NCBI GenBank assembly: GCA_945877765.1
Contig: CAMDWQ010000004.1
Span: forward strand, 44,558 to 108,557
Direction of reading: 5' to 3'
Length of the DNA stretch: 64,000 nucleotides
Origin: Candidatus Omnitrophota bacterium
Lineage (GTDB): Bacteria; Omnitrophota; Gorgyraeia; 2-02-FULL-51-18
Under the pieces are notes generated by a model. It was not told the DNA's origin. It worked only from the letters and a program-made list of their open reading frames with translations, and ran no database searches. Shown here one piece after another: positions 44,239 to 54,885 of the stretch. The stretch's first letter is position 1. Every line of letters begins with the position of its first letter. Position numbers and translations under genes: made by a program.

Positions 44239-44568
44239 ATGAATATTCGCAAAGTCTTATCTGTTGTTTTACTGGCAAGCATGCTTACCTCGCCCATAGC
44301 TTGGGCTGCCTCACGATCAGTATCAGTACGTATTTCATGCACAATACTGCCAAGCCTTCAGGTATCTTCACCATCTCAGTCGCAACTCACTGCTAAATCA
44401 TTACTTAGGAATGAAGCAGGTAATACTCGCAGACCAGAGCTGGGGGTTGCTTCTAGTGGTGATCAAATCATCGTAGGTGGTAGTCTTGGCAATCAATACC
44501 GTATACAAGAAAAATTTCTAAAGATTAAAGAAGATAATATTAAGCTTTACAGTATAACGGCCCTTTAA
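44239..44568 (+). CDS. Small secreted hypothetical protein
   Basis: Signal peptide MNIRKVLSVVLLASMLTSPIAWA. 110 aa. No family recognised. Confidence 0.35.
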   Translation: MNIRKVLSVVLLASMLTSPIAWAASRSVSVRISCTILPSLQVSSPSQSQLTAKSLLRNEAGNTRRPELGVASSGDQIIVGGSLGNQYRIQEKFLKIKEDNIKLYSITAL

Positions 44569-44643
44569 GATAAACGCTCAAGCCTCCATAGCACCCTCTC
44601 TACCTTGAAATAGGTGACGAGGTATGCTATATTTCAAGTATCA

Positions 44644-52205: not shown

Positions 52206-54885
52206 CAGTCAAGGATACACGGAAAAGATGCTCAGTGTCAATGGTGGGCAGTGAAAAAACACCTGCATTATAAGGGTTTCCCGCAAGATAGGGTGAGAAA
52301 CCAAAAACACCATATTCTCCCCTCAAAACAGAAGTGGCGTTGAGCTTGTAATCAAGGCTCGCATAGAAATTTTCATGCCCATCATAACTGACCTCCGTCT
52401 CGTTAGAAGCTGCGTAGCGGGGAATATCAATCTGACGAGAATAGGTAAAATCACAAAACCAGCTTAATTTTTTGGTCTGCACAAATTCCATACCCAGCCC
52501 CACATGGTTGACATTGTCATCAATGCCGCCAGCCGCGCGATAGCCGTTTTGAGCGGCATGCAGTGTGCAAGTAATCCGGCTTTCCGGCTTAAAAATTAGT
52601 CTCTCCTTAAAAATGTTGTAATATTGATAAGGTACCGACCCGCCCAAAACACCCCCTTGAAAATACATAAAATTTTGCATGCGATCAATCAGAATACCAT
52701 CGACGCGCTCCACGGGATCCCGAAAGAAATCATTGAGGAGGCCGCGCGGAAAATCAGGGATGGCATTTGTCCGCTCGTAGATCCCCTCAACCGTTAACCG
52801 CGAGTTGACCACGTACTGCAAAGCACCGCTTAACGTAAATTGATCGGCGTTCTGATCGGCTCTGACAGCGGTGTTCCGAACGACAAAATCAGTCAGATCA
52901 ATATCGTCTTTGGGAAAATAAAATCCTGTAAATACAGGATCAACATCAGCGGTGGTCCTGGGTAAAGCACGCCAGCGGAATAGTCCCTTGGCGGTGACGC
53001 TCGGATTAATTTTTAGAGTAATCTCATCACGAGTCACTGTTTCCACGTAAGCGGTATTAATCGCTTTATGCACATTGCGCACGTCAAATTCATTGTAAAA
53101 ACGATCTTTGAATAATTTTTCTTTCCAATGAAAACGAACCACCATGCGGTTCACATCCAAGCCGTCGCCGAGTTTGAATGACTCCAAATCCGGACGATTG
53201 TCAAAACGGATATGGGTCCCCCAAAAACGGTCATCGCGCGTACTCAGATAGGAGGAGTTCAGCGGGTCAAAAGTGGCGTCCATCTGCGCATAACTTAAAA
53301 GCCACTGGCTGTGGCCGTCATTATCCTTGTGGTCATAATCCCCCACCAATTCTGCCTTATAAGCAAATCCATCCCGACTGGTTCGCGTTCCCTGGGTCGT
53401 GAGTAAGTCCAGTTCACGATGGGATACAGCAACTTCTCCTAAAAAATTCACATTCTCCGTCACCGCATACTTCGTATCAATGCCTAATACATGGTCTGAG
53501 TCGGCAACACTGTTATCCACAAGACCTTCACGAAAAGTAAATGTAGCGGCGTTGGTCATCTTTTCGTTGGCGCGGTTCTTGAAACGGATAGCCCCTACAA
53601 CATTGTCAGCGGCATCAAACTTTTCATCCCAGGGTGTATAAGGCGCGGCGACAGTTGCGACAAAGTAGTTATCATCGGTGGCGGCTTCCATCGATGCCCC
53701 GCGAAGAAGCACCAAGCGATTACCCTCGCTGTCGCGCGCATAGTAAGAGAGCGCGTCAGAGTAATAGCCGCGCTTAATTGAGTGGTCTGCAAAATACTGG
53801 ACGGGCCGGTATTGGTACAACCAAGGGCTTGCCTGCCAATAATCCTTATTATTTGATAATCTTAGAGGATCATCTGTCGTCAATGCCTGATTTTCATCGG
53901 CTAACGCAAAGACACGCGCATGCCAATTATCTTCCTTGTAGTCGATCCACATTTTACGAAAAGGCCTGAGTTCAGTATCGATGTTGTGTTCGGGAATGTT
54001 GTACGACAAACCTGCGTCGTTACCGGGGATTCCGTCATTATCATCCAAACCCTGCACCACCGTCCCGCTAGTCAAATGACCCTGATGTGCTTTAATGTAG
54101 GGGAACGCAACGCGATCCGCAGTTGAATTGCGATACACCTCCCGAATGGTTGAGTTGAAAGCGCCAAAGTATTTCAAATTGTAATCGAGTGTGGTACTTG
54201 GATTTTGGTTGTTACGTGTCGTCTGATCGCCGGTCGTACCCACCCAGGACCAGGGGTCAATGACGATTTGCGTATAAAAATCCCATTTTTTTTCGGGGGA
54301 AAATTCGACGTTTAGTTGATACTGGTTATAGATCCCCGGGTCATACGTATTTTCGCGCCTCTCTCCAAAAATATAGTCGGATTGCGGGCCTTGCAGAGTC
54401 TGGATAGCCAACGCAGAGTTGGCGTCATTGAAAATAAAATCTTCTCCATTGCTTCCGGCGGCCAGGCGATACCGCCCCCACGTTCGAACCATTCCCATCG
54501 AGGCGCCTTTTTTCTCTTTAGCGGGATCCTTGGGAGCTGACTCAGGCTCAGAACTATATTCTTCCCCGGTTTCACTTAAGGGTTTTACAACCAACGTTTT
54601 TTGATTCAGGGGAGCTTCGGGAGCCCCTTCGTTGCGGGATTCCATAGCCGGCACTTTTGAACTTTCAATTATTTTTTGAACGTACTGGTTAAAGGCTTCA
54701 ATCTCATCCTCTGAATATTCCGGAAAATCTTTGAAATCAGTGGTGGGCCCTACAACTTTTTTGGCCGAAAAATCTCCTTGGGCGGCTGGGGAACTAGAAG
54801 CGGTTTCAGCAAAAGAAAAAGGTATAAAAAGAAATATAAAAAGGGTGCTGTAAATTAAGTATAAAAAAAATCCCTTTGGTTTCAT
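52195..54885 (-). CDS. Large (about 897 aa) outer-membrane beta-barrel protein of unknown family, ending ...LTGEF
   Basis: Signal peptide MKPKGFFLYLIYSTLFIFLFIPFSFA. Acidic low-complexity N-terminal region. Amphipathic alternating strands rich in Y/G/D/N. C-terminal Phe. No TonB box or plug. Confidence 0.5.
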   Translation of the reverse strand: MKPKGFFLYLIYSTLFIFLFIPFSFAETASSSPAAQGDFSAKKVVGPTTDFKDFPEYSEDEIEAFNQYVQKIIESSKVPAMESRNEGAPEAPLNQKTLVVKPLSETGEEYSSEPESAPKDPAKEKKGASMGMVRTWGRYRLAAGSNGEDFIFNDANSALAIQTLQGPQSDYIFGERRENTYDPGIYNQYQLNVEFSPEKKWDFYTQIVIDPWSWVGTTGDQTTRNNQNPSTTLDYNLKYFGAFNSTIREVYRNSTADRVAFPYIKAHQGHLTSGTVVQGLDDNDGIPGNDAGLSYNIPEHNIDTELRPFRKMWIDYKEDNWHARVFALADENQALTTDDPLRLSNNKDYWQASPWLYQYRPVQYFADHSIKRGYYSDALSYYARDSEGNRLVLLRGASMEAATDDNYFVATVAAPYTPWDEKFDAADNVVGAIRFKNRANEKMTNAATFTFREGLVDNSVADSDHVLGIDTKYAVTENVNFLGEVAVSHRELDLLTTQGTRTSRDGFAYKAELVGDYDHKDNDGHSQWLLSYAQMDATFDPLNSSYLSTRDDRFWGTHIRFDNRPDLESFKLGDGLDVNRMVVRFHWKEKLFKDRFYNEFDVRNVHKAINTAYVETVTRDEITLKINPSVTAKGLFRWRALPRTTADVDPVFTGFYFPKDDIDLTDFVVRNTAVRADQNADQFTLSGALQYVVNSRLTVEGIYERTNAIPDFPRGLLNDFFRDPVERVDGILIDRMQNFMYFQGGVLGGSVPYQYYNIFKERLIFKPESRITCTLHAAQNGYRAAGGIDDNVNHVGLGMEFVQTKKLSWFCDFTYSRQIDIPRYAASNETEVSYDGHENFYASLDYKLNATSVLRGEYGVFGFSPYLAGNPYNAGVFSLPTIDTEHLFRVSLTGEF

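Follow-up and report, generated by a model that had tools for sequence, protein, structure and literature searches.

Does a run of genes for secreted proteins in an Omnitrophota genome encode a surface fiber, and if so, is it a fiber of a known kind? The genes lie at positions 44239-54885 of a 64,000-nucleotide stretch of contig CAMDWQ010000004.1 (positions 44,558 to 108,557 of the forward strand) from the Candidatus Omnitrophota bacterium assembly GCA_945877765.1; we refer to the whole stretch as the window. An earlier note on this DNA had proposed an archaic chaperone-usher (CU) fiber locus of the Csu/sigma type, built from SCPU-domain subunits. Our analysis retains the broad outline, a fiber-type locus with a chaperone, an outer membrane pore, and small subunits, but not the membership in the Csu/sigma (SCPU) group. 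We propose that g6, g5/g4, g3, and g2 probably make up a chaperone-usher-type fiber system of a deeply diverged, undescribed lineage, a variant of this machinery that is distinct from Csu/SCPU and would form a fiber. What the analysis shows is gene content, conservation, the predicted folds of g3 and g2, the homology among subunits, and the layout of their strands.

Gene content and conservation of the core cassette

The open reading frame (ORF) listing and independent gene calls from public assemblies of identical sequence agree on genes g0 to g7; the same stretch is deposited as ENA ERZ27280191 k141_2203796 and as NCBI GCA_947444795.1, and the public gene calls made there were used for the comparison. 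All ORFs named in the earlier note are present where it placed them, with g3 called as a 268-amino-acid (aa) gene and not as the 294-aa ORF. The products of g0 to g7 all have N-terminal signal-peptide-like sequences, and homologs of the locus proteins come nearly all from metagenome-assembled genomes of Omnitrophota, an uncultivated nanobacterial phylum.

A conservation scan with one genome per species returned 31 loci, mostly labeled Omnitrophota, with one Margulisiibacteriota and several labeled Planctomycetia, Planctomycetales, or Clostridia; the complete genome of Candidatus Velamenicoccus archaeovorus LiM is among them (L027; NZ_CP019384.1, at about 1.115-1.136 Mb). The order g6, small subunit(s), g3, g2 is kept in about 27 to 30 of the 31 loci. 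Wherever the contig permits, g2 lies directly downstream of g3. A g6 ortholog lies upstream in 27 loci, and between g6 and g3 there are one or two small subunits bearing the same C-terminal strand (described below). The conserved unit is a four-part core: g6, g5/g4, g3, and g2. Genes g1 and g0 are limited to this genome and close relatives, and the upstream neighbors of the cassette vary widely among related loci. Whether the genes co-occur elsewhere was a check proposed in the earlier note, and they do recur together in a fixed order in about 30 other genomes. The order g6, small subunit(s), g3, g2 also differs from that of csu, as the earlier note had observed.

The candidate chaperone g3

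Gene g3 (48051-48857, minus strand) encodes a 268-aa protein with a signal peptide, a candidate periplasmic two-domain chaperone of PapD-like or WxLIP-like type. Its AlphaFold2 (AF2) model has a pLDDT of 93 and a pTM of 0.81, with a single weak stretch in the loop between strands 124-134 and 151-160. The model shows a two-domain immunoglobulin (Ig)-like PapD fold with an F1-G1 donor hairpin and superposes on the two-domain fimbrial chaperones CfaA, SafB, FimC, CsuC, and PapD and on Gram-positive WxLIP. CfaA, SafB, and FimC rank above CsuC, and EfmWxLIP1 (9i1y) is also a top match. A sequence profile of the g3 family matches the chaperone EcpB (E = 0.013) exactly over the F1-G1 region, where RIGaLFyve aligns with RIGTILVVA; R151 is invariant in the family.

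Neither PapD_N (PF00345) nor PapD_C (PF02753) matches g3 at E<=0.1, and PapD_N matches just 1 of 46 orthologs (E = 0.089). Sub-threshold matches to WxLIP_PGBD occur in 13 of the 46 orthologs, though not in g3 itself, and more distant members of the family pass the Pfam cutoff for this model. By sequence, the chaperone is nearer to WxLIP_PGBD (formerly DUF916) than to PapD_N. The PapD-like chaperone candidate of the earlier note is upheld at the level of the predicted two-domain fold, but not by the PapD_N and PapD_C models.

Sequence inspection found no C-terminal hydrophobic helix or membrane anchor in g3, which fits a periplasmic role in a diderm. When the g3 profile was compared to 1.84 billion representative sequences, it found 7,861 relatives (clusters at 50% identity), 2,692 of them at E<=1e-10; because the family numbers about 7,900 such clusters, it holds a large undescribed diversity. 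The family extends far beyond Omnitrophota, and many relatives are longer (about 370 aa or 530-590 aa) and contain extra stretches (P0199, P0211, P0212, P0280, P0283, and P0298), some of them reaching the WxLIP_PGBD cutoff of Pfam. Two chaperone paralogs, 31-33% identical to g3, are found at L006 (5215-6147 and 8655-9479) and L013 (9226-9993 and 9968-10858) and recall PamC and PamD of the Pam operons of the Candidate Phyla Radiation (CPR).

The usher-like outer membrane protein g2

Gene g2 (45182-48106, minus strand) encodes a 974-aa usher-like outer membrane protein. Pfam identifies T2SS-T3SS_pil_N (E = 1.5e-5), SdrD_B in three stretches (3.8e-20), and CarboxypepD_reg, which confirms the CpaC-like N-domain and SdrD-B repeats that had been read from the sequence. 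The AF2 model (pLDDT 82.5) consists of a beta-rich N-domain at about residues 94-173, a short helix, 26 consecutive strands at 197-682, and four C-terminal beta-sandwich domains (SdrD_B/CarboxypepD_reg) at 690-973. This predicted arrangement of N-domain, barrel on the scale of about 24 strands, and C-terminal beta-sandwich domains is that of an usher. The sequence models Usher (PF00577), PapC_N, and PapC_C are absent from g2 and from 34 homologs with precomputed Pfam annotation, and a g2 profile compared to PDB sequences matches only SdrD/UafA B domains, in its C-terminal repeats.

FimD and PapC are the top PDB structural matches to g2 by two independent programs. With Foldseek, full-length FimD takes the top seven places (E = 4e-19, about 810 alignment columns), PapC comes next (1e-14), and TonB-dependent transporters trail both at about 1e-9. 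The full length of g2 is collinear with FimD, terminal domains included. Since FimD and PapC are the top structural matches, the usher position is held by a protein of usher-like overall architecture. Judged from the model, g2 is usher-like at the fold level, and the departure in Pfam type is confined to its N- and C-terminal modules. The earlier description of a protein without PapC-type domains in the usher position holds for these end modules, but not for the fold.

The SdrD_B/CNA-B-type repeats are typical stalks of surface adhesins, and g2 could be a self-contained adhesin in the style of inverse autotransporters that displays its SdrD_B repeats on the surface, with the small proteins being unrelated lipoprotein-like or S-layer-associated factors. 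We consider this highly improbable. Inverse autotransporters have 12-strand barrels, far below the approximately 26 strands of g2, and the collinearity with FimD in Foldseek spans the full length, including the terminal domains. Because the strand number is even, both termini of g2 would lie on the side of the periplasmic secretin-type N-domain, which also counts against an adhesin. Finally, g2 strictly co-occurs with a protein of chaperone fold.

Subunits and the layout of their strands

Gene g6 (50778-52172, minus strand, 464 aa) encodes a secreted protein with three tandem beta-sandwich (pilin-like) domains, a candidate tip subunit. Gene g5 (50072-50740, minus strand, 222 aa) encodes a signal peptide, a Gly-rich linker, an N-terminal strand, and one pilin-like domain ending in GTYNATVTFTITE. 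Gene g4 (49044-49688, minus strand, 214 aa) encodes a secreted protein with the N-terminal strand APVSATVVAS and the C-terminal strand VYTSTYTLTLTA, a candidate major subunit. On the plus strand, g1 (44644-45168, 174 aa) encodes a putative accessory single-domain subunit of the g6-domain type, with a signal peptide and an N-terminal strand.

The products of g1, g4, g5, and g6 all end in a G-x-Y/F-x-x-T-x-T-like strand, which in g6 also closes the first two domains, so the earlier report of such a strand in these four genes, with three copies in g6, is correct. A post hoc regular expression finds the pattern in only 4 of the 99 window ORFs of at least 100 aa, namely, g1, g4, g5, and g6, and each of its residues G, Y, G, and T is kept in at least 90% of 32 orthologs.

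The label "SCPU-type" given to this strand does not stand. SCPU (PF05229) has no Pfam match among the window proteins at E<=0.1 and none at E<=1 in 32 small subunits and 27 g6 orthologs. The strand motif is not diagnostic of SCPU because unrelated beta-sandwiches of the PapD-like/ASH kind, FAP47 for example, have it too. These results bear on whether the locus could still be a genuine archaic system (sigma, Csu/CupE/spore-coat-U type) that has merely diverged. Like Csu/CupE and the Myxococcus spore coat protein U, the cassette has small subunits with a G-x-Y-x-x-T-x-T-like ending and an "FG" motif early in the domain, and it would share the thin-fiber logic of Csu/CupE, as far as the genes suggest. 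Unlike those archaic systems, it is negative for SCPU in 59 proteins, its gene order differs, and its chaperone and usher fall outside the Pfam CU families. More broadly, the SCPU, PapD_N/PapD_C, and Usher hidden Markov models (HMMs) have no significant match in the window proteins or in 27 to 46 orthologs of each. With CfaA, SafB, and FimC outscoring CsuC on g3, a chaperone family that reaches WxLIP_PGBD and not PapD_N, a cassette order unlike csu, and a generic strand motif, an archaic assignment is very unlikely. The HMM search suggested in the earlier note thus finds T2SS-T3SS_pil_N and SdrD_B in g2, but SCPU, PapD_N/PapD_C, and Usher nowhere above threshold.

The subunits are instead related to one another. 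An alignment of 27 orthologs shows that g6 consists of three mutually homologous domains of about 140 aa. Gene g1 is a single copy of this domain (hhalign probability of 99.4% to g6 domain 3; BLAST E = 7e-14), and homology to the g6 domains extends to the small-subunit family A4, with g4 and g5 among its members (hhalign probability of 97-98%, E of about 1e-12). At two loci (L004, 362-1852, and L021, 6310-7824), a second multidomain protein of about 500 aa with the same C-terminal strand is encoded upstream of the g6 ortholog.

The G-x-Y strand closes every g6 domain. Domains 1 and 2 are each followed by an extra strand of alternating hydrophobic residues with a closing Pro (STVILNVVVNVRP and PVIIPIQLEVEP) and then by the first strand of the next domain. 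Domain 1 begins right after the signal peptide, and domain 3 is the end of the protein; both lack the extra strand at these positions. In all small subunits, the signal peptide is followed by a strand of this kind (consensus ..v.AtvP), and the first 16 or so mature residues align to the g6 interdomain strand, with no counterpart before g6 domain 1. In the simplest reading of these sequences, the strand completes the preceding domain, in cis within g6 and in trans between subunits, which would place g6 at the tip. The layout fits the one expected for donor-strand complementation with g6 as tip subunit.

A g6 profile compared to the PDB matches 3f83, an engineered in-cis donor-strand CfaE-CfaB fusion of CFA/I pilins, at E = 2.6e-4, and in this alignment, the g6 interdomain strand falls on the CfaB donor strand VEKNITVTASVDP. 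We treat the 3f83 similarity as a sequence-based observation of register and collinearity, at the motif level only.

The NCBIfam model CPR_Pam_pilin_C (NF058581) matches 19 of 27 g6 orthologs, with a best E of 2.2e-7 and 31 bits against the 55-bit cutoff, and 1 of 32 small subunits. DUF4402 matches 3 of the 32 (best E, 7.8e-4), and g1 has weak matches to both models. By these comparisons, all below threshold, the subunits weakly resemble the CPR Pam-pilin C-domain and DUF4402, and the recurrent Pam-pilin C-domain match would point the same way as the donor-strand reading. The small-subunit profile, with or without signal peptides, gave nothing useful in comparisons to PDB sequences; with signal peptides included, the matches were to those only.

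Gene g0 (44239-44568, plus strand, 109 aa) encodes a small secreted protein whose N-terminal strand, VSVRISCTILP, resembles that of the subunits and whose body is far shorter. A homolog with 40% identity is encoded at the same position in L037 (16045-16347), and comparison to the subunit profiles gives fragmentary similarity only. We do not claim g0 as a terminator subunit on such fragmentary similarity; it may be a subunit that terminates or anchors the fiber, or a degenerate subunit, and its membership in the cassette is uncertain.

Expression signals

The small-subunit genes and the genes for chaperone and usher-like protein are separated by an intrinsic-terminator-like hairpin (48992-49032, minus strand), which lies between g4 and g3 and has an 18-bp stem followed by a U-run. 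Its minimum free energy is -33 kcal/mol (z = -7.65). A hairpin of -21.5 kcal/mol or lower occurs at the same position, in the gap between the small-subunit and chaperone genes, in 17 of 23 related loci versus 0.4% of shuffles. Separate promoter-like sites precede g4 (at 49972-49944) and g3, the latter together with a Shine-Dalgarno sequence. In papA-type operons, a terminator follows the subunit gene, and the major subunit of pap and fim operons is highly expressed. By analogy with pap and fim, the promoter-like site and terminator of g4 fit a strongly expressed major subunit.

Comparison with known systems

Among CU pili, the nearest systems are the alternate/class 5 type (CFA/I, with chaperone CfaA, pilins CfaB and CfaE, and usher CfaC) and the classical Fim and Pap types. 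The cassette resembles these in having an operon of subunits, a periplasmic two-domain Ig-like chaperone, and a large outer membrane barrel with predicted periplasmic N- and C-terminal domains. Further likenesses are the ranking of FimD and PapC as best matches to g2, the collinearity of g6 with the in-cis CfaE-CfaB fusion, and the terminator after the putative major subunit gene. Unlike CU systems, the cassette has no match to the PapD_N/PapD_C, Usher, Fimbrial, or SCPU HMMs. The N-domain of g2 is of the secretin (T2SS-T3SS_pil_N) type, and g2 carries four SdrD_B/CarboxypepD_reg domains in place of two PapC_C-type C-terminal domains, on a barrel of about 26 strands with no visible plug insertion. 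The putative tip protein has three tandem pilin-like domains, and the host, an omnitrophote, is outside the phyla of the cataloged CU systems.

The Pam pili of CPR bacteria have PamA/B pilins and PamC/D chaperones, donor-strand assembly through the acceptor C-domain of the pilin has been solved by cryo-electron microscopy, and the system is described as exclusive to CPR (bioRxiv 10.64898/2026.03.03.709456). The g6 and g1 domains give steady sub-threshold matches to NF058581, and the cassette also resembles Pam in its PapD/FimC-like chaperone encoded in the operon, its putative tip subunit without donor strand, and its ultra-small, host-dependent hosts. Pam pilins are two-domain proteins whose internal linker is the donor strand, unlike the cassette's small subunits, which have a single domain and an N-terminal strand. 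Pam chaperones are membrane anchored, and there is no outer membrane component, whereas g3 is soluble and the usher-like g2 is always adjacent. The cassette does not classify as Pam, as the best NF058581 match is 31 bits against 55, g3 is unanchored, and an outer membrane barrel is present.

The third comparison is with the WxL/WxLIP (DUF916-DUF3324) clusters of Firmicutes, given that distant g3-family members pass WxLIP_PGBD and EfmWxLIP1 (9i1y) ranks among the top structural matches. A hairpin strand of WxLIP is predicted to complete the beta-sandwich of its partner (PMC10599100), which is the same principle as donor-strand complementation by chaperones. Those clusters have no outer membrane, usher, or proposed polymer, unlike the cassette, and g3 has no transmembrane helix. 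Nor do the proteins classify as WxL/WxLIP: g3 is below the WxLIP_PGBD/WxLIP_HBD cutoffs, has no transmembrane helix, and has no WxL partner.

This kinship raises the alternative of a nonpolymerizing surface display system, a diderm counterpart of WxL/WxLIP in which g3 stably complements g4, g5, and g6, and g2 exports or anchors them, with no fiber. We regard this as unlikely. Because it has no membrane anchor, g3 would be unable to tether its partners. The subunits have a conserved N-terminal donor-like strand, g6 has covalent domain-strand-domain repeats, the usher-like g2 always adjoins g3, and no WxL domain is found in 32 small subunits at E<=1.

Taken by sequence models, the cassette falls outside CU (including SCPU/archaic), Pam, and WxLIP; taken by predicted fold and architecture, its chaperone and usher resemble those of a CU system. 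The four-part synteny, the g6-like subunits with their donor-like strand, the register of the 3f83 alignment, the Pam-domain matches, and the terminator after the subunit gene lead us to favor a chaperone-usher-type fiber. Several observations weigh against it. The TM-scores of g2 to full ushers are low (0.30-0.41). According to the DSSP string, the barrel has about 26 strands, not 24, and no plug insertion of about 80 residues is seen among the 26 consecutive strands; the pore may be gated by a hairpin or another domain. Large barrels look alike, and the similarity of the g2 model to ushers may be convergent rather than homologous. The N-terminal strand of the subunits might be each domain's own A strand. 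We dropped 3f83 as a case of domain-level homology, as single-domain profiles compared to CfaB alone gave hhalign probabilities of at most 5%. Lastly, all CU, Pam, WxLIP, and DUF4402 matches of the window proteins are under the curated cutoffs.

Proposed assembly mechanism

For the favored chaperone-usher-type system, we infer donor-strand exchange, fiber formation, an assembly order, and a function as follows. All products would be exported by Sec, as their signal peptides indicate, and g3 would cap newly exported subunits in the periplasm by filling the groove of the missing final beta-strand with its F1-G1 hairpin or G1 strand. Complexes of chaperone and subunit would bind g2 at its N- and C-terminal domains in the periplasm, and the large barrel would release folded subunits, as its fold suggests. 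Protein g6 would pass first through g2: it has no N-terminal extension, its joining strands would complement the preceding domains in cis, and domain 3 would be left open. The N-terminal strand of g5 or g4 would then fill the groove of g6 domain 3, and each further subunit would fill the previous one by donor-strand exchange, giving a thin fiber. The major subunit is probably g4, with its own promoter and a strong terminator separating it from g3-g2, and g1 and g0 may be lineage-specific accessory subunits. As to function, we assume that these bacteria, ultra-small and dependent on hosts, would probably use the system to adhere to cells or polysaccharide.

Neighboring genes and composition

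Adjacent to the cassette is g7 (52195-54816, minus strand), which encodes an 873-aa outer-membrane-barrel-like protein with the C-terminal sequence ...SLTGEF and is probably outside the fiber system. It has no match in Pfam, NCBIfam, or PDB sequences. Relatives of g7 were found at 80 related loci; fiber genes follow g7 in only 9 of the 48 with room for them, and about 30 carry a GH149-like gene instead. Two close relatives (L047 and L049) have g8-g7-gm1-gm2 and no cassette. Because g7 mostly occurs without the cassette, beside a GH149-like phosphorylase gene, we place it outside the fiber system, and the "second giant barrel" of the earlier note is not a member of the conserved cassette. It is probably part of a neighboring glycan/glucan module, with the PilZ protein g8, GH2-like genes, and ABC permeases.

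The GH149-like gene of the window, gm1 (40501-43857), encodes a beta-1,3-glucan phosphorylase-like protein. It is paired with g7 in about 30 metagenome loci, usually convergently (L047, L049, and L056-L092), and the cassette lies between the two in a subset only. This suggests that g7 and gm1 are a glucan channel/phosphorylase module and that the gap between them is a recurrent insertion or deletion site; the fiber cassette behaves as an insertion/deletion unit at this place.

The cassette is often found between g7 and the GH149-like phosphorylase, near GH2-like genes, ABC permeases, and the PilZ protein, and this proximity would agree with a module for glycan capture or uptake in which g6 and the small proteins bind carbohydrate, g2 is the import channel, and g3 is a binding partner, working with the flanking beta-glucan genes. 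Such a role is very improbable in our judgment. The cassette has many other upstream neighbors, and the g7-gm1 pair occurs without it. The best fold matches lie with pilus chaperones and ushers rather than with SusC/D or porins, and the strand layout would have no rationale in uptake.

Gene g8 (54936-56882), on the same strand as g7, encodes a PilZ domain, a membrane segment, a coiled coil, and a C-terminal region that is weakly glycoside-hydrolase-like. Upstream on this strand are g9 (56888-58195) and the genes at 58243-58836, 58930-60930, and 60935-62682. Besides the PilZ protein, the region 54936-62682 encodes two GH2_C-like proteins, a small secreted protein, and two ABC sugar-type permeases, and it may be a c-di-GMP-linked glycan module. 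Beyond gm1 are tRNA-Gln and tRNA-Leu genes and a class I Glu/Gln-tRNA-synthetase-like gene (38746-39051, 39100-40407), and the synthetase-like gene holds the same place beside gm1 in L047 and L049.

An AT-rich region beside the locus had been taken as a sign of acquisition or silencing. This stretch is only about 300 bp of intergenic DNA (43800-44100, GC of 0.20-0.27) between divergent genes, and the GC content of the locus (0.44-0.49) equals that of the window. We found no compositional signal of horizontal acquisition or silencing and set the idea aside; the sole hint is that some loci have the cassette between g7 and gm1 and others lack it. Elsewhere in the window, two 1-kb intervals (11001-12000 and 28001-29000) have unusually high AT skew (0.37 and 0.34).

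Significance for Omnitrophota and for donor-strand assembly

Chaperone-usher pili have been cataloged through usher and PapD sequence models, almost wholly in Proteobacteria plus a few other phyla. If our reading is right, a CU architecture is present in Omnitrophota yet invisible to these models. We found no description of such a system in the literature searched, including surveys of Omnitrophota and work on usher-like systems and PF13629. The Omnitrophota appendages discussed so far are type IV and Tad pili, with giant ORFs besides (PMC10066038).

More tentatively, and as a possibility we would not yet favor, the cassette may represent an unrecognized, phylum-wide CU lineage whose chaperone belongs to the WxLIP superfamily, probably together with CPR PamC/D, and whose usher is plug-less with a secretin-type N-domain. 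It would then form a bridge between strand complementation in monoderms and CU assembly in diderms, and perhaps serve as a fiber for attachment to host or prey. As a diderm link among CU pili, the Pam pili of CPR, and the WxL/WxLIP clusters of Firmicutes, which have been viewed apart from one another until now, the cassette would make the origin of donor-strand assembly testable, and it would add a candidate adhesion organelle to the biology of Omnitrophota.

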